This document shows, piece after piece, positions 4,857 through 40,130 of a stretch of 44,881 bases of DNA. The stretch's first letter is position 1. Every line of letters starts with the position of its first letter. The notes under the pieces were generated by a model. That model had not been told where the DNA came from and made no database searches. It saw nothing but the letters and a program-made list of their open reading frames with translations. Source of the stretch: Escherichia phage SM_A2. The position numbers were made by a program, and so were the translations under genes. Location: sequence record PP920552.1, one strand, 5' to 3'.

Positions 4857-4989
4857 ACCGCCTTGCACTTTTGAGAATGCCTCGGCAGATCCAGACGAAG
4901 ACTTGCTGGTTGATGTTAAAAATATGGAATGCGGGGCTAAGCTAAGGGCGCAAGTGCTGGAGTTGCAGAAAATAATTAGGGGGCCGTAA
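4759..4989 (+). CDS. o-spanin (Rz1-like outer-membrane lipoprotein, putative)
   Basis: ATG at 4759 with RBS AAGAGG; signal peptide MLRVLTVLIAVLMMSAC with lipobox-like Cys; short Pro/Cys-containing mature part; starts inside the i-spanin ORF in a different frame (overlapped Rz/Rz1 architecture). Confidence 0.55.
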   Translation: MLRVLTVLIAVLMMSACGSSNVPSTPLTESVYRPPCTFENASADPDEDLLVDVKNMECGAKLRAQVLELQKIIRGP

Positions 4990-5005
4990 TGGCCCCTTTT
5001 TTTTT
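4979..5005. terminator. bidirectional intrinsic terminator
   Basis: GGGGCC-GTAAT-GGCCCC hairpin followed by T9; lies between the convergent plus-strand spanin genes and minus-strand gene 5007-5771. Confidence 0.8.
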
Positions 5006-5006
5006 G

Positions 5007-6130: not shown

Positions 6131-6165
6131 CTTGTTTTCCTTCATATCTCTGTTGGTGTGCAACC

Positions 6166-6195
6166 AATATATTGCAACCAATACCCATATTGCAA
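6166..6195 (-). promoter_or_regulatory. sigma70-like promoter with ATTGGTTGCA motif (leftward)
   Basis: Read on the minus strand: TTGCAA (-35, fwd 6190-6195), 18-nt spacer containing ATTGGTTGCA, TATATT (-10, fwd 6166-6171); a second TGCAACCAAT copy at 6159-6168; upstream of gene 5816-6130. Confidence 0.5.
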
Positions 6196-8744: not shown

Positions 8745-9188
<444 letters not shown>

Positions 9189-9215
9189 CATGGCGGGATT
9201 TAACTACGCAGGCTT

Positions 9216-9285
<70 letters not shown>

Positions 9286-9300
9286 CGAAGGGGGAGTAAC

Positions 9301-9654
9301 ATGGCGGGATTTAACTACGCAGGCTTGAAGCGGAAAGTAAATCCGCTGATTAAAAAATACGGCATGACCGTTAAGGTGACGCGTCCGGGGTCTGTTGACC
9401 GCGTAGACGGCGAAGAAGTGGTTATCCCGCCAACGTCGTTTGATGTCATCGGTCTTCGCGAGGAGTACAAGCCCAGCGAGATCGACGGGACTCGTATCAT
9501 TGCCGGTGACGTTAAGTTCTTATGCCAGGCATCGGAGCAAGTGCAGGTAGGCGATCTGGTTAACCTGAATAGCACGGACTACCGTGTTATCAATCCAAAT
9601 CCACTGCAACCGGCGGGAACTACCATGCTGTTTCAATTACAGCTAAGGGGCTAA
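9301..9654 (+). CDS. head-tail joining protein (putative); alternative in-frame start at 9190
   Basis: ATG 9301 preceded by AAGGGGGAG; an identical RBS+ATG lies 111 nt upstream (9190) in the same frame, which would add MAGFNYAGL-(SQ)11-SRRGSN. Confidence 0.4.
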   Translation: MAGFNYAGLKRKVNPLIKKYGMTVKVTRPGSVDRVDGEEVVIPPTSFDVIGLREEYKPSEIDGTRIIAGDVKFLCQASEQVQVGDLVNLNSTDYRVINPNPLQPAGTTMLFQLQLRG

Positions 9655-11458: not shown

Positions 11459-11488
11459 TTTGGTCGCTTAAATAGCGGGTGTTAATAT

Positions 11489-11512
11489 GGGGCCAGTACG
11501 GCCCCTTTTTTA
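11489..11512 (+). terminator. intrinsic terminator after major tail gene
   Basis: GGGGCC-AGTAC-GGCCCC hairpin followed by T6. Confidence 0.8.
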
Positions 11513-11527
11513 TTGGAGAATACTACA

Positions 11528-11890
11528 ATGGCAAAAGCACCACTCTTTACACTTGACCCTAAGCCGACTTTTAAGCTGCCGATTGAAATACCGCGCCCTG
11601 GAGAAAACGAACCGGGAAAAATGACGTTTACCGTGCGCCACCGCCCGATCGACGAATTTTCGCAGACCATGCAGGATACTGAGCGCAAGTTGTCGGAGTA
11701 TGACGACAATGACCCTGACGGCTTTAACGTTATGGTCGAGGCCATAATGCACGTCGCAGAAGGCTGGAATCTGCCGGACGAATTTAACGCAGAGAACGTC
11801 CGCCGCCTGGTGGTCAACTATCCGCGTGCGTTCGGCGTGTTCCACACTTCGTACTATCTCGAACTGATGGGATTGCGTGAAAAAAACTAA
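11528..11890 (+). CDS. tail assembly chaperone (gpG-like)
   Basis: ATG 11528 with GGAGAA RBS; acidic 120-aa protein immediately upstream of the tape measure region; ends in a slippery heptamer. Confidence 0.7.
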   Translation: MAKAPLFTLDPKPTFKLPIEIPRPGENEPGKMTFTVRHRPIDEFSQTMQDTERKLSEYDDNDPDGFNVMVEAIMHVAEGWNLPDEFNAENVRRLVVNYPRAFGVFHTSYYLELMGLREKN

Positions 11891-12204
11891 TTGAGGCGGC
11901 GCGACGCTTTTATGGCCCGCCGCCACCATCCGAAGATTTAGCCGCGAGTTTATGGGGCGCGACCCCTGAAGACGTTTGCCCTCCGGTTGCACTATGGCCA
12001 GACAATGCGAAGGTAGTCGCAGTCTTCACAGATTGCTCCACGCAATGGCGTACCGGATTCGGTGGCGCATACGGCATCGACTACGGCGTACTGGAATGGC
12101 TATTTAAGATGCACGGCATCGAAAACGCGCAACGTGCGTTTAAAGATATCAAGCTAATGGAACGCGTTGCGCTGGATGAAATGGCGCGGCAGAACCCCGC
12201 ATAA
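11528..12204 (+). CDS. tail assembly chaperone frameshift product (gpGT-like, via -1 shift at 11881-11887)
   Basis: The -1 frame is open from the slippery site A_AAA_AAC (11881-11887) to TAA at 12202-12204 (about 105 further codons) and has no start codon of its own. Confidence 0.6.
11881..11887 (+). other. programmed -1 ribosomal frameshift slippery heptamer A_AAA_AAC
   Basis: X_XXY_YYZ heptamer at the last codons of the chaperone ORF, 1 nt before its stop; -1 frame continues open downstream. Confidence 0.6.
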
Positions 12205-12588
12205 CGGAGCGGGACAGGCGGGACGTCCCGTTTTGCCCCGCACCTCTAAAACTGCATATTTACGCACCACAATTGCATAAATTAAAAGCGGGACAGGCGG
12301 GACGCCCCGTTTTGTCCCACCCCCAAAATGTGAATGTCTATTCAGTTTTAGTGCATAAACTAAGCGGGACAAAAAGCGGGACAGAATGAGGCGGGACAAA
12401 GCGGGACAGCACCCCCGTCCCCACCAGTGCTGCCGCGGTTTTTAGCCGATCGGGACAGGCGGGACAAAGCCCAGTCTTTCAGACTAGACGGGGGTCAATG
12501 GCCCCCCTCGTCTGAGACTGAATAAGGTTTGTTTTAAATTCGCTGATACAATGACAAACGGCAACTGCATAAAAAGGGGGACTGCATA
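12205..12588. repeat. non-coding iteron/hairpin element, copy 1
   Basis: 384-bp gap with no convincing ORF; about 10 copies of GCGGGAC(A); two 35-bp direct repeats (12209-12243 and 12288-12322); a long imperfect hairpin at 12472-12520; A(C/T)TGCATAA copies. Confidence 0.8.
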
Positions 12589-15231
12589 ATGGCAGATCAG
12601 GCAGCGGGCATCACGCTCAAGGCGGACGTCGCGCAAATTAAAACGGCGAATACTGTGCTGGACACATTTGCGCAGAAATCCGAGAACACAGAACAGAAAG
12701 TCAAAAAATTAAACGACACCCTCGGCAAGTCGAAAAAGGTCACGGGTGACGCCGCTGGCGGAATGGAAAAGTTAGCGACTGAATCTCAGCGTGCCGCCGA
12801 CGGCATGACGAAACAGGAGCGACTCGCCAGCCGATTAGGCATGTCGACCAAAAACCTGGGATTCGCATCGCGGAACGCCGCATTCCAGTTACAGGATATC
12901 GCGGTTACGCTTGAGATGGGTATGCCGGTGCACCGCGTCATGCTTCAGCAGCTACCACAGCTAACCGGCGCATTTGGCGGACTAGGTAACACGCTGCGTT
13001 ATGTTGCAGGCTTCCTCGGCCCCGTAGGGATCGGCCTTGCCGCCGTAACGGCGACGTTAGGCGTGGGTGTTGCAATTACGTCCCGAGCAGAGAACCAGGT
13101 AGCGGCGCTTAATAAGACGCTGGCACTTTCCGGTAACATTTCCGGCCTGACGGCAAACCAGATCCTGGTGCTATCCGAGAACGCCGAGCGCATGGGTGGG
13201 TCGTTCCGCAAGACGCGTGACACAATCCAGGCGCTGGCGGCGGCGGGTGTGAAAGCGGGTGGTGACTTCGGCGCACTGGCGAAGGTAGTGAATGACTTCG
13301 CGAAGGTGTCCAGCCAGCCGATCGAGGATGTGGTAGCGGCGGTGGCGAAGCTGTCAACCGACCCCGTTGGCGGACTGCGTGCGCTGGCGGATAAGTATCA
13401 CGTCGTAAACGAAGCGCAGATCCAGCAGGTACAGTCGCTCGTTGATGCGGGTCGTGAGACAGACGCAGTTGCGTTGGCTAACAAAACAGCCGCTGCGTCG
13501 TTCACCAGCATGACCAATGAGATCAAGGCGAACATGGGTACGCTTGAGCGATCTATGAACGTCGTCACATCGGCAGCCAAATCAATGTGGGATGCCATCC
13601 TGGATGTGGGCCGCGCGCAGTCCTCCAATGAATCCGAGATGAAAGCGCGCGAATCACTGCAGCGGCTGACCACGGCTTACTATGCCGAGATGAAAGCGGT
13701 AAACGCTGCCGGTGGGGTAATGACTGAAGCGCAGAAAGCACGTATTAACATGCTTTACAGCGAACTGGTCGCCCAGGAAAAAGTGGTGGCGTCGCTCACC
13801 CTTCGTAACCGTGCGGAGCGAGACAACGCCCGCGCCGCAGACGAATCCGCAAAGGCGAACGAGGAGGCCAACCGCACTGCCCGTGACCGCGCCGCGTTCG
13901 AGAAGGAATACGCCACCAACGCTAAGAAGCGCGCCGACGAGATCGCCCGCCTCAATTTGCTGAATAAGCGCGGCGTTATTGATGAGAAAGAACTAGCCGA
14001 GGCGGTGAAGCAGGTAAACGAGCGGTACAAAGACCCAGCCCCGAAAAAGGCCGCGGCGGTTCGCGTGGATGCCGGTATGAAAATGCTGGAAGTCGCACGG
14101 AGCGAACTGGCCCAGCTTCGAGAATCCGGCAAGCAGATCGAAGCCAACGCGTCTACGCAGACCCGCACGCAACGCGCTCAAGCGGCCTTAAACAAGCTGA
14201 TCGCCGACAATGAGCAGTTAATCGCTGCGAGCAAAGAAAGAGCGCTAACGGCAGCAGAAAAGCAGCAATTAGTCGAGTTCGGGCGCGTGAAGGAAGTCCG
14301 CGAGCAGATCGTCGAAGAAGCCAAATTGCTGGATGCGAAAGAGCAGCAGGTTAAGGCGCACGCGCAGATCGATGCCTTCGTTAAGAACCAGAACGCCGAA
14401 CTAAAAGCCACCGCCGCGGGGTATGCGCTTTCCACTCGCGAAGCGGCAAACCTGCGCGAAGAATTGCAGCTAATTGACCGCCTGAAGCGGGTTGGCGCTA
14501 ACGATACCGATATTGATAAGGCGGTGTCTAAGCTGCGAGAAGTGCAGGAAGCACAGACCGGCGCTAACGCCTCGTTATGGGATGGATTCAGTCGCGGGCT
14601 TAAGGATAGCGTGGATGAAATGGGTAACGGATATACGCAGATGGCGTCTCTCACGAAATTCACATTCAGCGCTATGCAGGACACGATGAACGAGTTTTTC
14701 GAGACTGGCAAGCTGAACGCAAAGGATATGGTTAAGTCCATCCTGAGCGAATTAATCAAGCTGGCTACCTCGCAGGCGTTCAAGTCCATCGTTAGCGCTT
14801 TCGGTGGCGACGGCGGCAAAAACGGATTGTTCGGCGCTATCTTCTCGGGCCTCACCAAGAATGCGGACGGCGGAGCGTACGCAGGAGGCAATCTCGCGGC
14901 CTATTCTGGGAAAGTGGTAAGCCAGCCTACCTTTTTCAGTTATGGCGTCCAGGCGTTCGCTAAGGGCGCAGGATTGATGGGCGAGGCTGGTCCCGAGGCC
15001 ATCATGCCGCTGAAGCGCGGGCCGGACGGGAAACTGGGCGTTGCCGCGTCTGGCGCAGGCGGTGGTATGGTCGTGACGACTAACGTTTACACGGGGACCG
15101 GTAAAACGGATACCAGTGTCAGCGGGCCGGATCCCCGTACCGCGCAGGCGTTCGGCAAGCAAATCACCGAGGCGGTGAAGGCCGAGATCGTGAAGGCGAC
15201 GAAACCGGGTGGTGTACTTTACAAACGATGA
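12589..15231 (+). CDS. tail tape measure protein
   Basis: 880 aa; long alpha-helical, Ala/Gln/Lys-rich sequence with a Gly-rich C-terminal part; ATG with AAGGGGG RBS; follows the G/GT chaperone. Confidence 0.9.
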   Translation: MADQAAGITLKADVAQIKTANTVLDTFAQKSENTEQKVKKLNDTLGKSKKVTGDAAGGMEKLATESQRAADGMTKQERLASRLGMSTKNLGFASRNAAFQLQDIAVTLEMGMPVHRVMLQQLPQLTGAFGGLGNTLRYVAGFLGPVGIGLAAVTATLGVGVAITSRAENQVAALNKTLALSGNISGLTANQILVLSENAERMGGSFRKTRDTIQALAAAGVKAGGDFGALAKVVNDFAKVSSQPIEDVVAAVAKLSTDPVGGLRALADKYHVVNEAQIQQVQSLVDAGRETDAVALANKTAAASFTSMTNEIKANMGTLERSMNVVTSAAKSMWDAILDVGRAQSSNESEMKARESLQRLTTAYYAEMKAVNAAGGVMTEAQKARINMLYSELVAQEKVVASLTLRNRAERDNARAADESAKANEEANRTARDRAAFEKEYATNAKKRADEIARLNLLNKRGVIDEKELAEAVKQVNERYKDPAPKKAAAVRVDAGMKMLEVARSELAQLRESGKQIEANASTQTRTQRAQAALNKLIADNEQLIAASKERALTAAEKQQLVEFGRVKEVREQIVEEAKLLDAKEQQVKAHAQIDAFVKNQNAELKATAAGYALSTREAANLREELQLIDRLKRVGANDTDIDKAVSKLREVQEAQTGANASLWDGFSRGLKDSVDEMGNGYTQMASLTKFTFSAMQDTMNEFFETGKLNAKDMVKSILSELIKLATSQAFKSIVSAFGGDGGKNGLFGAIFSGLTKNADGGAYAGGNLAAYSGKVVSQPTFFSYGVQAFAKGAGLMGEAGPEAIMPLKRGPDGKLGVAASGAGGGMVVTTNVYTGTGKTDTSVSGPDPRTAQAFGKQITEAVKAEIVKATKPGGVLYKR

Positions 15232-24341: not shown

Positions 24342-24347
24342 TGAGAA

Positions 24348-24369
24348 GGGGCCGTATGGCCCCTTTTTT
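24348..24369. terminator. bidirectional intrinsic terminator
   Basis: GGGGCC-GTAT-GGCCCC hairpin followed by T6; between the tail fibre gene and the first minus-strand gene. Confidence 0.8.
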
Positions 24370-24943
24370 AGTTTGAGTTTTCCCAGTCCATTTTGCGCCG
24401 CACTAGCGGGCTTTCGTAATACTCCTTCCCATCCACTTCCACTAAGGGCCAGTCATTAACAATGACGTAAGGCTCTGCGATATCCTCGATCACGCCGTGC
24501 GCGCTATGTTGCCCGAAATCTACACCCACCAGGATAACCCCGGCAACTCGACGAGCAAGATATTCGCGGGCGCAACGCGCCTCTACCAGTCCGCGACGGA
24601 TGCCGCTGGTAGCTTTGACCTCGTAGGTCCAGACGGCATCGATCACATGCTCGCGGAAGTCGGGGCCGGATTTAACCTTGCGCTTGCCAACCATGATAAT
24701 ATCGCCGCGGTCGATAGTGTTAGCGCTAAACAGGCCGGTACGCATTAGCAAACCTTGCGGGATACAGCTACGCCCGCCCGCCTGCCCTTCGAGGTACATG
24801 CCTGCAAACATTTCGCCCAGCACACCGACGAGTCTGCTTTGCTTGCACGCGTCGGATTTATACCGCCACTGGTCAAACTCGATGCTTGCTATCATTGCCG
24901 CCAGGTGGAATTGTTTACCAGATATTTCATATTCGCCGTACAT
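24368..24943 (-). CDS. hypothetical protein with possible PD-(D/E)XK nuclease signature
   Basis: 191 aa; segment SGPDFREHVIDAVWTYEVKATSG fits PD-x12-E-V-K. Weak, motif-only assignment. Confidence 0.35.
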   Translation of the reverse strand: MYGEYEISGKQFHLAAMIASIEFDQWRYKSDACKQSRLVGVLGEMFAGMYLEGQAGGRSCIPQGLLMRTGLFSANTIDRGDIIMVGKRKVKSGPDFREHVIDAVWTYEVKATSGIRRGLVEARCAREYLARRVAGVILVGVDFGQHSAHGVIEDIAEPYVIVNDWPLVEVDGKEYYESPLVRRKMDWENSN

Positions 24944-25587: not shown

Positions 25588-25617
25588 ACTATAGTGCAAC
25601 CAACCTATTGGTTGCAA
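25588..25617 (-). promoter_or_regulatory. sigma70-like promoter with palindromic TGCAACCAA-N4-TTGGTTGCA motif (leftward)
   Basis: Minus-strand reading: TTGCAA (-35, fwd 25612-25617), 18-nt spacer, TATAGT (-10, fwd 25588-25593); overlaps the stop of gene 25605-26075; followed by hairpin GGGGGC-AATACA-GCCCCC (25561-25578). Confidence 0.5.
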
Positions 25618-27254: not shown

Positions 27255-27288
27255 AATATAATGCAACCAATATGATTATGCAACCAAT
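27255..27288 (-). promoter_or_regulatory. sigma70-like promoter with tandem ATTGGTTGCA motifs (leftward)
   Basis: Minus-strand reading: ATTGGTTGCAT (-35 = TTGCAT, fwd 27278-27283), 17-nt spacer containing a second ATTGGTTGCA, TATATT (-10, fwd 27255-27260); a near-complementary hairpin plus T-run follows in the leader (fwd 27228-27250). Confidence 0.55.
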
Positions 27289-33015: not shown

Positions 33016-33816
33016 TTAACGGCGGCGACGTTTGCGTGGCGCTTCGTCTTCGTCGTCGTCCTCATCATCTTCGTCATCGCGTGGCTTACGACGTTTGCGA
33101 GGTGTTTCATCTTCGTCGTCGTCATCGCGGCGCTTGGACTTTTTGGACTTGCGCGGCTTGTCGTCTTCGTCATCGTCATCACGACGTTTTGACTTTTTGG
33201 ACTTACGCGGGCTTTCGTCTTCGTCGTCGTTATCCAGGTCTTCGTCGGAACATGAAGACCCGCCACCGCCGAAGGCTTCGCCGTCTTCACGGAATCGCAG
33301 ACCCAGCAAGCCCGCCCCGAGTCCCTTGCCGTTGGTATTGTTCCATGCCCAAATATCAAGGGACACGTTGCAATAACAACCGGGGTAGATCTCCTGGCCT
33401 TCGATCTCGTCGCCTTCTACGGTCAGACCTTGTTCAGTCTGCTTCTCGCCGAGTGACGTTTGGATGATAGGCTGTTTGAACGATTTGGCGTTGATATACA
33501 ACATGCCTTCGAATTCTTCGGTTACTTCGTCGCGCTCGTCACCGTCGCGGACTGCGCATTCCTTAGAATCCTGGGCGTAGTGGCGGTCCATCCACTTATC
33601 GGCATTCTTCTCGGATTTCAGCTTGTCGGTGAGCACTGCGCGCGCTGCCGCTTCCACTTTGTCCACCTGCGGATCTTCTTTATCAAGAAGAATCACGGCG
33701 CGGTATGCCGGTTTTTGTCCATCCTGTTTAGGGGTATCACGTTCCCAAATTTTCAGGAAACATACGCGCACATTTTTCAGGTTGACTTTAGCCATTTTCC
33801 AATTCCTCATTTTCAC
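33016..33816 (-). CDS. ssDNA-binding-like protein (DUF2815-type, putative) with charged repeat tail
   Basis: 266 aa; location next to the DUF2800-like nuclease and polymerase matches the conserved phage replication module; C-terminal about 70 aa alternate poly-acidic and poly-basic blocks from tandem DNA repeats (about 33040-33235). Confidence 0.5.
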   Translation of the reverse strand: MKMRNWKMAKVNLKNVRVCFLKIWERDTPKQDGQKPAYRAVILLDKEDPQVDKVEAAARAVLTDKLKSEKNADKWMDRHYAQDSKECAVRDGDERDEVTEEFEGMLYINAKSFKQPIIQTSLGEKQTEQGLTVEGDEIEGQEIYPGCYCNVSLDIWAWNNTNGKGLGAGLLGLRFREDGEAFGGGGSSCSDEDLDNDDEDESPRKSKKSKRRDDDDEDDKPRKSKKSKRRDDDDEDETPRKRRKPRDDEDDEDDDEDEAPRKRRRR

Positions 33817-33885
33817 ATGTATCGGGGTTATTGGAAGCCACCCCGTTCGGCTTGGTTGCTAATCTACTTGGTTGCGCCTACGCGG

Positions 33886-36029: not shown

Positions 36030-36641
36030 TTAATCTTCCAGTTCGAAATAAGTTTCGACGATTTCTTTAAGATCTTTGTGGAAGTCTTCGACGTCGTCAT
36101 CTTCCAGCTTGGCGATTGATTTGATCTCGAACGATTCCAGCAGGTCGTCGAATTCGTCGTTGGCATCGTCGTCGTCACCACCAGCGATAATAGCGGCGTA
36201 TTGTTTGATCTCATCGCGCATCTCCGCCAGCGGATCGGCATCTTTCTTGCCTTTGCCTTTCGCCGGGGCTTTTTTAGATTTAGCCGGTTTTTCGTCTTCG
36301 GCGTCATCGTCGTCATCTTCTTCTACGACTTCTTTTTTGGCCTTACCTTTCGCCGGGGCTTTTTTAGATTTAGCCGGTTTTTCGTCTTCGGCGTCATCGT
36401 CGTCATCTTCTTCTACGACTTCTTTTTTCGCCTTACCTTTCGCCGGGGCTTTTTTAGATTTAGCCGGTTTTTCGTCTTCGGCGTCATCGTCGTCATCTTC
36501 TTCTACGACTTCTTTTTTCGCCTTAGACGGCTTCTTGTCTTCCTGCTTACCAACGGCAGCGCCAACGGTTTCATAATGCTTAGCGATGGTTTCCAGTGCT
36601 ACTACGCCGCGAGTAATCAGGTTTACGATTTGTTCAAACAT
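36030..36641 (-). CDS. charged-repeat protein, first gene of leftward operon
   Basis: 203 aa; three tandem 38-aa repeats (KKEVVEEDDDDDAEDEKPAKSKKAPAKGKAKK) from 114-bp DNA repeats (about 36245-36530); strongly acidic C-terminus; GGAGAT RBS. Confidence 0.6.
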   Translation of the reverse strand: MFEQIVNLITRGVVALETIAKHYETVGAAVGKQEDKKPSKAKKEVVEEDDDDDAEDEKPAKSKKAPAKGKAKKEVVEEDDDDDAEDEKPAKSKKAPAKGKAKKEVVEEDDDDDAEDEKPAKSKKAPAKGKGKKDADPLAEMRDEIKQYAAIIAGGDDDDANDEFDDLLESFEIKSIAKLEDDDVEDFHKDLKEIVETYFELED

Positions 36642-37045: not shown

Positions 37046-37375
37046 ATGAATGTAAACGACGCAATCGAAATGTTAACGAAGACTGTTAGCAGTGAAACAA
37101 GCCGGTCATGGGCTTATACCGATGCCGTTGGGGCGGTGCTGTTTGAGGTCGAGCGCCTGCGCAGTGTAGAAAAAGAATTACGCGCCAGGCTGGAATTGCT
37201 CAACGGTACTGCAGCAAGCAAGCTGCAAAAGCACAATGAAGAAATGGAAGAATACAAAAAACAGGTTATCCGTTTGCGCGCCGAGGGCAAATCCTGGGCG
37301 ATGATTGCCGAGTTGACCGGAATTAATCGGAGCACAGTGCGCTCCTGGGTACGCAATAATAAAACTTCTAAGTAA
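37046..37375 (+). CDS. HTH DNA-binding regulator (putative)
   Basis: 109 aa; coiled-coil N-terminal half; C-terminal HTH resembling sigma-70 region 4/LuxR type (GKSWAMIAELTGINRSTVRSWVRNN); first gene of the rightward operon. Confidence 0.55.
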   Translation: MNVNDAIEMLTKTVSSETSRSWAYTDAVGAVLFEVERLRSVEKELRARLELLNGTAASKLQKHNEEMEEYKKQVIRLRAEGKSWAMIAELTGINRSTVRSWVRNNKTSK

Positions 37376-37385
37376 GGCCACGGCA

Positions 37386-39650
37386 ATGAGCTTAATTAAA
37401 TTCGCTGTAACAAGACCCGCTAAAAAAGGCGAAAAAGCCAGGGCGGAAAACTTCCAGATGACCACCGATGAATTTTTCGAATTTATCAATGATGCGAAAG
37501 AAATCTCCTCGGTGCATATCAACAAGACGGAAGATAAAGCCGAGTATGCGCGCCGCAAGCGTAAGGCCGACGGCATCGTGGCGTATACCAGTGACGGATT
37601 GCGTCGTAAGACCAGTGCGGTGGACCGCTCGATCCTGTTCTTCGATATTGACCGCACCGACACCCGCACCCTACGCCGCTGCCGTAAGGCGTTCATTGAC
37701 GCGGGTCTGGAGCACGTCTTCCACACCACAACCGGCGACCGTCACCCACTGAAAGGCGGCACGCGTTGCGCTCGATTCCTGGTGCTCACTGACAAGCCTG
37801 TACCGGCTGAAGACCTGGGCCGCGTCCAGTATGCACTATTACACCAACTGGGTCTGTCAGATGTGGACTTCGACGATTGCACGAAAGACACAAACCGCCT
37901 GATGTACCTGCCACACCAGCAGTCTGTTATTAAGTGCCACTATGGCAAGCGCGCCCGCGTCCGTCGTCTGCTCCTCCTGGCTGACAAGCTGGGAGTTGAG
38001 AAAGAGGAAGTCCGTCGCGAACTGACCCAGGGCGACGACGCAGTGGCAGACGGCATTCTGGACTGGTGCTTCCAGGCAGGATTCGAGGAGTTATCTTCAG
38101 GGCGGGGCTATGAAGTGCCGTGCCCGAACGAACATCTGCACAGCGGCGAAGGGTCGACGGCTATCATGGTTAAGGATGGCGAGATCCGTTTCAAGTGTAT
38201 GCACACCGGCAACGAGTGTTGCTCGGAGCTGAACAGACACCAGCACCTGGCGCTACGTCTTATCGGGATCCCGGACCACCTGAACGTCGAGCCACACAAT
38301 ATGTCCCGTAAGCAAATCGCCGCCATCCTTCCGGGGCTGGACGTCGAGGAAGTCGAATCCTTATATGAACATATTGTTGATGCGGTTGGCGACGGCGAAG
38401 AATACGGCGTGTGCACCGATGCGGATCTGGATAACGAGCCGGTTGCGCTGTTCAGTAAGCACGACCCGATTATCGAGGGGTTGATTAACTTTAAATCGAC
38501 CTGGTATATGGCGGGTGAGTCGAATATCGGTAAGTCTTTCTACGTGCTGGGCCAGATGGGCGCGGTTGCCGCCGGTATTCCGTTTGGCGGTGCGAAGGTC
38601 GTACAGTCTCATTGCTTCTATTTCGACGCGGAAGGTGGCGAAGCCTCCAACCAGCGTAAAGAAGCATTGCAGATTAAATACGAGCACGACCTGGACAAGC
38701 TGCACATTATAGACCTGCAGTCACGCGGCTGGGATATCACCAGCAAATCGGGCTTGCGCGAAGTTATCAGCTTTATCAACCGCACCGCTAACGGCGAACC
38801 GGTTGGCCTGGTGGCGTTCGACTCACTCAACCAGACTGTTGCGTTGCGGTCCGCCGAGGCTAAACCGTTCGACGAGAACAACGCCAGCGATATGGGCGAA
38901 GTGGTCAAAGCGCTGAAGGCCATCGCGGAAAATACAGGTGGCAGTGCGGGCGTCATCCACCACCCGGCTAAAGGTGCAAACGGCAGCAGAACGCCACGCG
39001 GGTCCGGCGCGCTGCATGGTGCTGTCGATTCTGCGTTCTTCCTGGAACAGCCGGACGACAACCAGCCCGGACAATTGAACCTGTATCATGAGAAGTCACG
39101 TAACGGCATCAAGCAAGCGCCGCGCGGCTTCGTCCTGCTTAAGTGCAAGGTGAAGGTGGATCTCCGCAAGTCAGAAGCGTTCGAGGCGCACCAGTCCACC
39201 AGCACCGGTCCAGACTTCGGCGACGTGGTTGCCGGATGGGACGTCAAGCCGATCGCCTCCACGCCACGCGACGAGACTCTCTACCTCGTACCGGTTGCCC
39301 TGGCACCTTTCGCTATTGAACAGGCGAAGGCAGCAGGCAAGGCCGCGGTTAAGGAAGAGAACACCGCCGGGCCGCGCAACGAAAAAGAGAAAGTGCTTTA
39401 TGCGGCACTGGAAAAACTGATGGAAGATAACCCGGACCATACTGGATTCAGTAAATCGGCAATTGTCCGCCAGGCGGGACTCGCGAAAGGCGGCACTTCG
39501 ACGAAGGCAATCGACGATATGGTGGAGCGCGGAGTGATAGGTTTCTATACCGATCCGCACACCGGGGCCATCTATGGGTCGTCTAATTTGGTCATAAAAA
39601 CGGATATACCAATCACGCTTTCGGCGACCGACGAAGACTTGAAAGATTAA
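37386..39650 (+). CDS. DNA primase / helicase (primase-polymerase N-domain + P-loop NTPase)
   Basis: 754 aa; N-terminal acidic motif ILFFDIDRTD; Cys/His cluster (CPNEHLH...CMHTGNECC); Walker A GESNIGKS and Walker B-like LVAFDS. Confidence 0.8.
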   Translation: MSLIKFAVTRPAKKGEKARAENFQMTTDEFFEFINDAKEISSVHINKTEDKAEYARRKRKADGIVAYTSDGLRRKTSAVDRSILFFDIDRTDTRTLRRCRKAFIDAGLEHVFHTTTGDRHPLKGGTRCARFLVLTDKPVPAEDLGRVQYALLHQLGLSDVDFDDCTKDTNRLMYLPHQQSVIKCHYGKRARVRRLLLLADKLGVEKEEVRRELTQGDDAVADGILDWCFQAGFEELSSGRGYEVPCPNEHLHSGEGSTAIMVKDGEIRFKCMHTGNECCSELNRHQHLALRLIGIPDHLNVEPHNMSRKQIAAILPGLDVEEVESLYEHIVDAVGDGEEYGVCTDADLDNEPVALFSKHDPIIEGLINFKSTWYMAGESNIGKSFYVLGQMGAVAAGIPFGGAKVVQSHCFYFDAEGGEASNQRKEALQIKYEHDLDKLHIIDLQSRGWDITSKSGLREVISFINRTANGEPVGLVAFDSLNQTVALRSAEAKPFDENNASDMGEVVKALKAIAENTGGSAGVIHHPAKGANGSRTPRGSGALHGAVDSAFFLEQPDDNQPGQLNLYHEKSRNGIKQAPRGFVLLKCKVKVDLRKSEAFEAHQSTSTGPDFGDVVAGWDVKPIASTPRDETLYLVPVALAPFAIEQAKAAGKAAVKEENTAGPRNEKEKVLYAALEKLMEDNPDHTGFSKSAIVRQAGLAKGGTSTKAIDDMVERGVIGFYTDPHTGAIYGSSNLVIKTDIPITLSATDEDLKD

Positions 39651-39741
39651 ATTTTGCGCGCATTGGTTGCCATTTTGCGTGCTTTTAGGTGGTCGCATTG
39701 GTTGCCGCGTAGTGTAAATATGATGAATAGTTATGCAATAA

Positions 39742-39914
39742 AACTGCATAAAACAAACGGGACAAAAAGCGGGACAAACAGGGGGCGGGACAAAGCGGGA
39801 CAGCACCCCTGTCCCGCCCCGGATGACGCGGCCTGGCGAGGAGCGGGACAGCGGGACAGCACCCCAGTCTTTCAGACTAGACGGGGGGTCTGGCACCCCC
39901 CTCGTCTGAGACTG
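39742..39914. repeat. non-coding iteron/hairpin element, copy 2
   Basis: Paralogue of 12361-12520: about 6 GCGGGACA copies, A(C/T)TGCATAA copies and the conserved long hairpin (39865-39914); lies in the 480-bp gap after the primase-helicase gene. Confidence 0.8.
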
Positions 39915-40068
39915 CATAAAATCCGGGATTGCATAATACACGGCAACAAGATGCAAATTGCGGTCGTCGATGAACTAGGCAACCAATGCGAGCTGCAGAA
40001 TGGCGGGTGAAAAATGCAGTTTGCAGTTACAGCAGATAGCGATCAACTTTTTCATGCGCGTGATTAAT

Positions 40069-40102
40069 ATTGGTTGCATTCACCCTGGCACCCTGCTATT
40101 TT
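40069..40102 (+). promoter_or_regulatory. sigma70-like promoter with two ATTGGTTGCA-type motifs (rightward)
   Basis: ATTGGTTGCAT (-35 = TTGCAT 40074-40079), 17-nt spacer, TATTTT (40097-40102); a second motif TTTGGTTGCAC overlaps the -10/+1 region; about 20 nt upstream of the AAGAGGA RBS of gene 40131. Confidence 0.55.
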
Positions 40103-40130
40103 GGTTGCACACCAACAAGAGGACTGAACG

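Follow-up and report, generated by a model that had tools for sequence, protein, structure and literature searches.

Paralogous repeat-and-hairpin modules of Escherichia phage SM_A2 and related siphoviruses as candidate origin-type sites for the phage primase-helicase

Described origin systems and the layout in phage SM_A2

Bacteriophage SPP1 carries two paralogous origins, each combining direct repeats with an AT-rich segment and both bound by the gp38 protein (PMC6316719); for the copy in the late region, fork stalling has been proposed to bring about the theta-to-sigma switch (PMC6316719). Here we analyzed a potentially analogous pair of modules in Escherichia phage SM_A2 (sequence record PP920552.1), using a stretch of 44,881 nucleotides (hereafter, the window) that is a complete or nearly complete Dhillonvirus genome of the HK578/SO-1-like coliphage type. 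The first module, termed el1, is the 384-bp gap between the tail assembly chaperone gene with its frameshift extension GT and the tape-measure gene (12205-12588, plus strand), and the second, termed el2, is a paralogous copy located after the primase-helicase gene (39724-39950, plus strand). We consider it probable that el1 and el2 are initiator-binding, origin-type modules for the phage's own primase-helicase. Like SPP1, which is also a siphovirus of ~44 kb with headful packaging, the window has one module at the candidate initiator gene and the other interrupting the late morphogenesis gene order. The two layouts differ in that SPP1 gp38 is a separate protein, accompanied by the loader gp39 and the DnaB-type helicase gp40, whereas the candidate initiator described here is a single primase/RepA-like helicase/winged-helix polypeptide. 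Furthermore, oriL of SPP1 lies inside gene 38, whereas el2 follows its gene; oriR lies among head genes, whereas el1 is located between GT and the tape-measure gene; and no conserved long hairpin is described for SPP1. The SPP1 initiator is best regarded as an analogue of the present candidate rather than a member of the same group, the likeness being one of layout.

Three further systems offer partial precedents. The P4 alpha protein is a multifunctional primase-helicase with a Toprim-type primase and a C-terminal winged-helix origin-binding domain, whose targets are origin sites containing repeats (PMC4234260). Neither an equivalent of the conserved hairpin nor a location in a structural operon is shared by P4, as the former is lacking and crr lies elsewhere. 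The P4 repeats are short octamers in two separated clusters, both of which act in cis in replication, and the alpha helicase belongs to superfamily 3 (SF3), whereas the helicase described here is RecA/RepA-like. A sequence comparison of our primase-helicase with PDB gave no match to the solved chains of P4 alpha, and the P4 origin-binding domain was absent from the top 50 Foldseek matches of the C-terminal model. Membership in the P4 alpha family was excluded on the basis of the RecA/RepA-like helicase, the lack of a PDB match and the generic character of the winged-helix matches. At RSF1010 oriV, the iterons are read by a separate protein, RepC, the DNA is opened, and hairpins next to a conserved single-stranded sequence are recognized by a dedicated primase (PMC4234260). 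RSF1010 RepA is the closest structure to the helicase domain here, and the hairpins and primase of RSF1010 are ssiA/ssiB and RepB', respectively. The iterons of IncQ plasmids are ~20 bp long and their two hairpins lie on opposite strands, whereas the repeats described here have 7-8 bp and a single palindromic region is present. In pRN1, a large stem-loop immediately downstream of its own primase-helicase-winged-helix gene is needed for replication and works when relocated (PMC4234260). A primase, a helicase and a C-terminal winged helix are combined in pRN1 ORF904 and in the protein of Bordetella phage BIP-1, as in our candidate; pRN1 differs in its archaeo-eukaryotic prim-pol domain, SF3 helicase, absence of repeats and single copy. 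The SPP1, P4, RSF1010 and pRN1 precedents are used here as analogies of layout and logic, not as homologs.

In the accessible literature, this region is not mentioned in genome papers on YD-2008.s, vB_EcoS-B2, eiAU and SO-1-like phages, nor in the BASEL papers, and the searchable literature gave no origin description for Dhillonvirus, Eiauvirus or Guernseyvirinae.

The two modules, their relatives and their repeat words

On its left side el1 is bounded by the gene for tail assembly chaperone G and its -1 frameshift extension GT (11513-12204, plus strand). Gene G (11513-11890) matches the Pfam family Phage_TAC_4 (E=1.7e-23), a slippery A AAA AAC sequence is located at 11881-11887, just 5' of its stop codon, and the -1 frame is open up to the TAA at 12202-12204, encoding a T-domain (DUF1799, E=3e-21). 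On the right side, the tape-measure gene (12589-15231, plus strand) starts with the ATG at 12589 and matches Pfam TMP_2 (E=2.6e-43) as well as Tape_meas_lam_C. An earlier note, made from the sequence without database searches, had described the interval between the GT stop at 12204 and this ATG as a 384-bp gap with no credible open reading frame (ORF). Our analysis confirms this, as no ORF of the gap showed codon-like conservation among 15 Dhillonvirus genomes. In these genomes variation, including non-triplet indels, is found in the spacers, whereas the repeats, the hairpin stems and the -10 element are the same throughout, and thus the pattern of conservation is motif-like and not coding. 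The same pattern does not bear out a decayed protein-coding gene, which the earlier note had also envisaged. Small 'hypothetical proteins' are annotated inside el1 in several GenBank records.

Short direct repeats are clustered in both modules far above chance. For GCGGGACA, 2.2 occurrences would be expected in the window but 17 were counted, seven of them in the gap and another six in 39769-39858. Its core CGGGAC is found ten times on the plus strand of the gap and once inverted, in agreement with the approximately ten iterons noted previously, and CGGGACA-N1-8-CGGGAC pairs (nine in total, none expected) are confined to the el1 and el2 regions. TGCATAA is likewise enriched (15 in the window against 5.5 expected), with eight copies within the two elements. 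The 5' part of el1 consists of two direct repeats with 89% identity (12208-12244 and 12287-12323), 37 nt in length rather than the 35 bp given earlier. Each of them contains two direct CGGGAC copies, then an inverted copy and then TTTT, and the stretch between them is AT-rich (71%) and contains TGCATAT and TGCATAA. The only perfect palindrome of the gap is CGGGACGTCCCG at 12219-12230; the 'several' CGGGAC palindromes of the earlier note were a generous count, the others being imperfect. An AT-rich leader, GAATGTCTATTCA ... GTGCATAAAC (12331-12363), follows, and corresponds, in diverged form, to the GAATAGTTATGCA/TGCATAA pair found at the start of every post-primase module. The main repeat block (12364-12421) comprises four direct copies of GCGGGACA, with cores starting at 12365, 12377, 12392 and 12402, and an inverted partial GTCCC at ~12413-12417. 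A repeat-motif scan placed two further direct repeats, CGGGACAGGCGGGACA, at 12450-12467, directly 5' of the conserved hairpin region (12472-12520, loop TCAATGG), and this order of two repeats followed by a hairpin is kept in every lineage, whatever the repeat word. The AT-rich (70%) tail (12521-12565), a candidate unwinding region that would also hold the tape-measure promoter, contains the extended -10 sequence TGaTACAAT (12544-12552) and the conserved ACGGCAAC (12558-12565), and CGGCA(A/G)C is found 3' of the hairpin in all lineages.

In el2 the parts from the leader onward recur on the plus strand in the same order: GAATAGTTATGCA at 39725-39737, four direct and one inverted repeat at 39758-39816, two direct repeats at 39844-39857, the hairpin at 39865-39914 with the loop TCTGGCA, and ACACGGCAAC at 39938-39947. 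The alignment of 12331-~12565 with 39724-~39947 has ~81% column identity (the leader pairing with 39724-39757 and the main block with 39757-39818), so the paralogy claimed in the earlier note extends further than had been stated. The proposed match between the two hairpins was also corroborated, including the two loop sequences, as the 5' arm CAGTCTTTCAGACTAGACGGGGG occurs exactly twice in the window (at 12472 and 39865; none expected). No further copies of the element were found within the window. The repeat blocks are flanked by 40-nt patches with an AT content of 70-72% (genome, 45%), located at 12245-12286, 12324-12363, 12521-12560 and 39706-39757; repeats of the 13-mer type were not found. 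The spacer between the repeat blocks contains the motif TGATTTATAAGGA or its variants in many non-Dhillonvirus lineages (L350 5381-5393, L351 5035-5047, L374 3995-4007, L375 2884-2896 and L377 95-107, and also L367, L376 and L104), and in its place Dhillonvirus has a GC-rich GCTGCCGCGG stretch. At this position L103 has a full match, AATCAATAGCTTA, to the consensus of integration host factor (IHF). The TGATTTATAAGGA motif may be a bending site for a host factor; by eye, GAATAGTTATGCA and TGATTTATAAGGA are at best partial matches to a DnaA box or an IHF site.

The presence of el1 in related phages was assessed by database comparison, as the earlier note had proposed. The stretch 12100-12700 is 97% identical to Escherichia phage vB_EcoS_Sponge, at least 80% of this query is covered in 149 of the 158 matching phage records, and the window gene order is that of Sponge and SSL-2009a. 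We compared 78 IMG/VR loci in which a relative of the T-domain is encoded. Fifteen of them are from Dhillonvirus: in 14, which extend as far as the tape-measure gene, the gap measures 357-406 bp and contains 8-10 CGGGAC copies, while the fifteenth ends before this gene; el1 is present in essentially every Dhillonvirus record. In ~55 distant relatives (31-49% identity), on the other hand, the tape-measure gene starts between -26 and +51 nt from the GT stop. These results support the expectation that the junction is normally tight and that Dhillonvirus carries an insertion. Three other groups with a large gap have it filled by an intact 87-aa ORF unrelated to el1.

The post-primase module has a still wider distribution. 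A module of the el2 type is located directly after the primase-helicase stop codon in Dhillonvirus, in relatives with 66-69% primase identity, in IMG/VR phages with 40-51% and in the Guernseyvirinae phage STP-1 with 43%, and in all lineages having such a module it begins within ~100 nt of this stop codon, a linkage not shared by el1. The parts are arranged in a constant order: one or two GAATAGTTATGCA elements, a 7-8-bp word in three or four direct copies and one or two inverted ones, a spacer, two more direct copies, the hairpin region and a tail of the form TTATTCA..ATGCA..ACGGCA(A/G)CA. In loci L102, L103, L106 and STP-1 the module is followed by a consensus sigma-70 promoter. At least nine different repeat words were found on this one architecture, namely CGGGACA (window, L092, L348), GTGGCA (L349, L350), GGTGCCA (L351, L376), GTGTGCCA (L375), CGGACAA (L367), TCCGACA (L102, L369), GGGATAA (L103), GGGGATGA (L106), GGGGGAGA (STP-1, L368) and CGCCCCG (Edwardsiella phage eiAU). 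Scans of IMG/VR for the distant words GGGATAAAGGGATA and TCCGACA-N-TCCGACA gave only unrelated contigs among the matches listed. Such a pattern, in which the scaffold stays constant and the word is replaced as a whole, is the behavior of initiator/iteron pairs.

The junctions of intermediate relatives were reached through homologs of the tape-measure protein, and el1 was found in Dhillonvirus, in Eiauvirus and in relatives whose tape-measure identity is as low as 38%. In four lineages that use different words, el1 and el2 have the same repeat word, in two cases on one contig. In the window, both modules use CGGGACA. The el1 of L370 (tape measure 59% identical) uses CGGGAC, and the L370 protein is also encoded on the contig of L348, whose el2 uses CGGGACA. 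The el1 of L371 and the el2 of L349, located at the two ends of one 27.6-kb contig, both use GTGTGGCA, which is also present in both el1 (L372) and el2 (L350) from a single sample. Both ends of the 27.6-kb contig (logan:ERR11172925_9173; L349 12344-12370 and L371 1-27) consist of the same 27-nt el1/el2 repeat, GGGGTGTGGCAAGTGTGGCAGCACACC, and evidently the short-read assembly broke at the paralogous elements. GGGAT-type words, AGGGAT(A/C) and GGGGATC, occur at the two loci of one 43.9-kb contig (L373/L374; tape measure 52%, primase 47%), and in phage eiAU (tape measure 38%, primase 56%) the word is CGCCCCG at el1 as well as at el2, the two having a common stretch of 52 nt at 88% identity. These sequence comparisons indicate that el1 is a duplicate of el2 that arose at the GT/tape-measure junction before Dhillonvirus, Eiauvirus and their relatives diverged, and that its word has followed every change of the el2 word since the duplication.

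The two loci also appear to exchange sequence. Loop alleles (TCAATGG, TCAGCGG, TCTGGCA and others) and two variants of the pre-hairpin segment occur at either locus in different genomes, and two genomes have the same loop/pre-hairpin sequence in el1 as in el2. In IMG/VR 2706796375, one of 14 genomes compared, the loop/pre-hairpin alleles are swapped relative to the window. This distribution of alleles points to gene conversion, or to non-allelic recombination, over the 17 and 27 kb that separate the loci, and such exchange explains much of the identity between the two hairpin copies. The retention of el1 in essentially all Dhillonvirus occurs despite the recombination hazard posed by two direct repeats of ~190 bp.

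The GT/tape-measure junction appears to be a recurrent insertion site. The intact 87-aa ORF lies at this junction in L034 (2840-3103), L043 (2838-3101) and L073 (2838-3101), where the tape-measure gene that follows it begins with a non-ATG codon; by eye, we take this ORF to be DUF2829-like. One or two small reverse-strand ORFs lie between GT and the junction element in L370 (1353-2101), L372 (1967-2140) and eiAU (L378, 566-919) and have their own TTGGTTGC or GCAACCAA motif region. In these relatives, the junction element is always proximal to the tape-measure gene. Two linear records start near the junction, NC_073081.1 (Sponge) 17 nt 5' of gene G and KF772233.1 (eiAU) 221 nt 5' of the tape-measure gene; these starts are probably arbitrary, and most records begin at terS.

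The hairpin, the candidate initiator and neighboring sites

The el1 hairpin region can fold into one long bulged hairpin, or into a mini-hairpin (AGTCT-ttc-AGACT) next to an apex hairpin formed by a G-run and a C-run. The fold has an energy of -12.7 kcal/mol (z = -4.3) with DNA parameters and of -28.4 kcal/mol with RNA parameters. Compared to shuffled sequences, z-scores ranged from -2.6 to -4.6 in 11 of the 13 hairpin variants, and were -4.1 for the whole gap and -5.4 for the el2 region. Among Dhillonvirus genomes the loop is polymorphic, but neither arm varies. The earlier note had taken conserved stems with differing loops in the two copies of one genome as a sign of selection on structure, an argument that is weak in this form since the alleles swap loci. 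A comparison across lineages, performed by folding each sequence separately and tabulating the helices, provides firmer ground for the same conclusion. Compensatory changes are found in L350, which has GGGGTG/CCACCC in place of GGGGGG/CCCCCC of the window as well as an A-T pair in place of a G.T pair, and in L375, which has GGGAG/CTCCC. In distant lineages the sequence is wholly different, yet a 5' mini-hairpin and a G-run/C-run apex hairpin are present in all 14 variants, with AGTCT, TCATC, TCCTC or CTCCT as mini-hairpin arms and TTC, AAG, TAAC or TAG as loops. A 3' segment complementary to the 5' arm, present in most variants, permits either one long bulged hairpin or two to three short ones. 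Structural selection on the hairpin is supported by the genus-wide invariance of the stems together with the compensatory changes, or the full turnover of sequence with hairpins kept, in other lineages. In L350 and L375 the hairpin is of the same type as in the window although the word differs; presumably, the part of the machinery that recognizes it is more conserved than the winged helix.

The candidate initiator is the product of the primase-helicase gene (37386-39650, plus strand), which matches Pfam AAA_25 and is a replicative helicase-primase in PHROG. Its N-terminal region is primase-like, with an invariant Cys/His cluster. In an AlphaFold2 (AF2) model, the helicase domain (residues 357-531 and beyond) is predicted to have a RepA-type fold, the top Foldseek matches being the hexameric helicase RepA of RSF1010 (1NLF/1G8Y/1OLO) with E ~1e-10, a target TM-score of 0.66-0.70 and a root-mean-square deviation of 3.0-3.3 over 244 columns. 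The C-terminal domain (residues ~661-745, nt 39366-39620) has a predicted helix-helix-helix-strand-strand order, and its model matches winged helices (MarR family, ORC2 winged helix, histone H1) with weak E-values (at or above 0.02) but high Foldseek probability. The winged helix was the only region of the protein that tracked the repeat word: its identity relative to the rest of the protein was 0.92 in same-word and 0.77 in different-word pairs (nominal Mann-Whitney p = 1e-4, from non-independent pairs among eight proteins with four words), and p exceeded 0.14 for each of the four other regions. We regard this co-variation as provisional, supportive of word recognition by the winged helix but not conclusive.

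The small helix-turn-helix (HTH) protein encoded at 37046-37375 was ruled out as reader of the repeats, its HTH being invariant across phages with CGGGACA, GTGGCA and GGTGCCA. None of the other neighboring proteins combined conservation among same-word genomes with divergence in the remaining genomes. For the HTH protein (109 aa, Pfam HTH_23/Sigma70_r4_2), encoded at the head of the primase operon, the Sponge record gives the name 'recombination nuclease inhibitor gamma' and PHROGs gives 'transposase', both of which look wrong. The HTH protein more plausibly goes with a separate motif, TTGGTTGC, which occurs 18 times in the window against 2 expected and is often paired at a distance of 12-35 nt. 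Sites of this motif are located at 6160-6181, 17260, 22724, 25596-25615, 27263-27287, 30237, 33852-33875, 36848, 39663-39705, 39979, 40070-40108 and 40634. Five copies flank el2, and two of these overlap a plausible promoter, TTGCAT-N17-TATTTT, at 40073-40101. Phages with TTGGTTGC have the invariant HTH in the small protein, whereas those with TGTTGGCTGC or GCTGCCAAC encode a different HTH_3 protein. The TTGGTTGC sites probably form a separate operator/promoter system.

The tail of el1 probably supplies the promoter of the tape-measure gene, a call based on sequence and conservation. TGaTACAAT agrees well with an extended -10 element and shows no variation in any Dhillonvirus copy, and CTGATACAAT is invariant in the 15 Dhillonvirus el1 copies and also present in L371 and L372. 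The predicted transcript start, at ~12559, lies ~30 nt 5' of the tape-measure ATG, for which AAGGGGGA would be the ribosome-binding site. A scan with the consensus promoter, which requires a -35 element, returned nothing at the el1 tail.

Both modules are located in a rightward unit that contains the small HTH gene, the primase-helicase gene, small genes, and the lysis, terminase, head and tail genes, while the polymerase, helicase and nuclease genes form the leftward unit of the window. Near-identical strong intrinsic terminators (GGGGCC-loop-GGCCCC followed by a T-run) are found at 4977-5006, 11486-11515 and 24345-24374, the second directly between the major tail gene and gene G. Tandem repeats in coding regions are located at 9063-9338, 33023-33246 and 36236-36525; one of the three has a 12-nt period and lies in the region of head or tail genes, and the other two have units of 54 nt and 90 nt in which complements of GAC/GAA abound, corresponding to acidic repeats on the minus strand.

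Replication sites or other functions

Based on these results, the following scheme can be proposed for el1 and el2 as origin-type modules. The C-terminal winged helix would read the 7-8-bp repeats, four direct and one inverted followed after a spacer by two more. The RepA-like helicase would multimerize on the repeats, opening the adjacent AT-rich DNA, and the hairpin region would then extrude and be used by the helicase and primase domains as a signal for loading or priming. In this scheme el2, tied to the initiator gene in every lineage, would be the primary origin. The complete duplicate el1, located in the late (tail) operon and presumably kept by selection, would act as a second origin or as a cis-acting replication site (an enhancer or fork-arrest site), in analogy to SPP1 oriR or P4 crr, and would in addition provide the tape-measure and distal tail genes with an extended -10 promoter. 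Among the four roles suggested by the earlier note for the insertion (a second origin, a pause site or terminator, a structured RNA, and a small mobile element), the comparative evidence favors the first. What that note had missed is that the element is older and wider than the genus, that its word switches in concert at both loci, and that el1 likely holds a tape-measure promoter.

Several observations weigh against the origin interpretation. The cumulative GC skew has no inflection at 12.4 kb and follows the direction of transcription, with a minimum at ~37 kb and a maximum at ~24 kb. The module is always co-oriented with the downstream genes, and el1 ends ~20-30 nt 5' of the tape-measure ATG in every lineage, both of which fit a transcriptional role at least as well as a role in replication. 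Classical iterons have 17-22 bp, whereas the repeats described here have 7-8 bp and lie at irregular spacings of 8-16 bp. Phage STP-1 has a single cluster in its whole genome, and thus a second copy is not generally required. The match between the el1 and el2 words could in part be upheld by gene conversion rather than by selection on el1. In addition to the non-independence of the pairs in the region comparison, column-by-column tests for same-word-specific and for lineage-unique substitutions gave no clear specificity cluster in the primase-helicase. Finally, binding, unwinding and initiation are predictions from sequence for all members of the group.

The main rival explanation, which we judge unlikely, is that of a transcription-control module. 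The repeats would be operator or activator sites of a phage regulator, possibly the primase-helicase itself as a roadblock or autoregulator, the hairpin an RNA attenuator, RNase III processing site or stabilizer, and the tail a promoter; el1 would uncouple the expression of the tape-measure and distal tail genes from that of G/GT and boost it, and el2 would mark the early-to-late boundary. The constant orientation and the position of the el1 end relative to the ATG, both given above, agree with this explanation, as do the invariant extended -10 element TGATACAAT and the sigma-70 promoters found 3' of el2 in L102, L103, L106 and STP-1. The sequence CGGGACGTCCCGTTTT just 3' of GT resembles a weak terminator, although it is below the criteria of the terminator scan, and in its size (~20 bp, with bulges) the long stem resembles an RNase III substrate. 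On the other hand, the word tracks the winged helix of a replication protein and not the conserved HTH regulator, and the module remains tied to the primase-helicase gene across very different sets of downstream genes. At el2, moreover, those genes have a promoter of their own, and hence the module is not needed as one. The long hairpin was rejected as an intrinsic terminator, which had been among the earlier suggestions: it lacks a U-tract, being followed by AATAAGG or CATAAAA, and the only plus-strand site in the scanned region was at 11489, upstream of gene G, with none in the gap. Many origins are coupled to promoters, and a transcriptional role is compatible with one in replication.

A more elaborate version of the replication hypothesis is rather doubtful and we mention it with reserve. 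It combines initiator-autonomous, IncQ-like replication with el1 as a replication-coupled switch. The single primase/RepA-helicase/winged-helix protein would read the swappable words, open the DNA and prime on the palindromic 'single-strand initiation' hairpin; initiator occupancy or fork arrest at el1 would set the theta-to-sigma transition, and the embedded promoter would keep the tape-measure and distal tail genes expressed in step with replication.

A structured RNA, either cis-acting or free-standing, for example a put-type element of processive antitermination with one copy per long rightward unit, is improbable. The two copies in one orientation inside rightward transcription units, the strong folding z-scores of the gap, the el2 region and most hairpin variants, and the compensatory changes, including that from G.T to A-T, are all compatible with an RNA. 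However, the most conserved parts are short direct repeats whose word is swapped wholesale, which is typical of protein-DNA sites rather than RNA helices; the palindrome can fold equally well on either DNA strand; and within the genus the hairpin is invariant in sequence and not merely in pairing. No Rfam 15 family matched the window at the gathering score or with E < 0.3, the best sub-threshold hits (E 0.3-0.8) being to unrelated families.

A packaging (pac) site made of repeated terminase-binding sites is very improbable. Known pac and cosB sites do have clustered short repeats, and the vB_EcoS_Sponge and eiAU records begin near the junction. Packaging in Dhillonvirus is reported to be by a headful mechanism with circular permutation (PMC9022532), and most records begin at the terminase gene. 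The second copy lies beside the primase-helicase gene, whose winged helix is tracked by the words, and the copies are 17 and 27 kb apart, neither adjoining terS. The least probable explanation, a selfish or neutral sequence such as an element resembling a miniature inverted-repeat transposable element (MITE) or the remains of a decayed gene, would account for an insertion relative to most relatives at a junction that takes moron genes elsewhere (the 87-aa ORF of L034, L043 and L073 and the reverse-strand ORFs of L370, L372 and eiAU), but this idea, which the earlier note had raised as a small duplicated mobile element, is contradicted by the presence of only two copies at always the same two loci, by the absence of matches in 5,426 complete E. 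coli genomes and 72,556 plasmids, by the intact architecture across Dhillonvirus, Eiauvirus and their relatives down to 38% tape-measure identity and by motif-like rather than codon-like conservation, and terminal inverted repeats or target-site duplications were not noticed.

On a practical level, the direct repeats of ~190 bp break short-read assemblies, and annotation pipelines call spurious ORFs in the gap. The interpretation of el1 and el2 as origin-type modules provides a concrete prediction of the origin and of the initiator domain for Dhillonvirus, Eiauvirus and Guernseyvirinae. These siphoviruses of E. coli, Salmonella and Edwardsiella are among the most often isolated, and are represented in therapy collections and in screens for defense systems. 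At least nine words on one scaffold, switched in concert at two loci, constitute a natural specificity-swap series, which could be used to study the evolution of initiator/origin specificity and the incompatibility between co-infecting phages. If the interpretation is true, the oriL/oriR layout of SPP1 would extend to siphoviruses of Gram-negative bacteria with an unrelated initiator, which would suggest that this layout has a general function.

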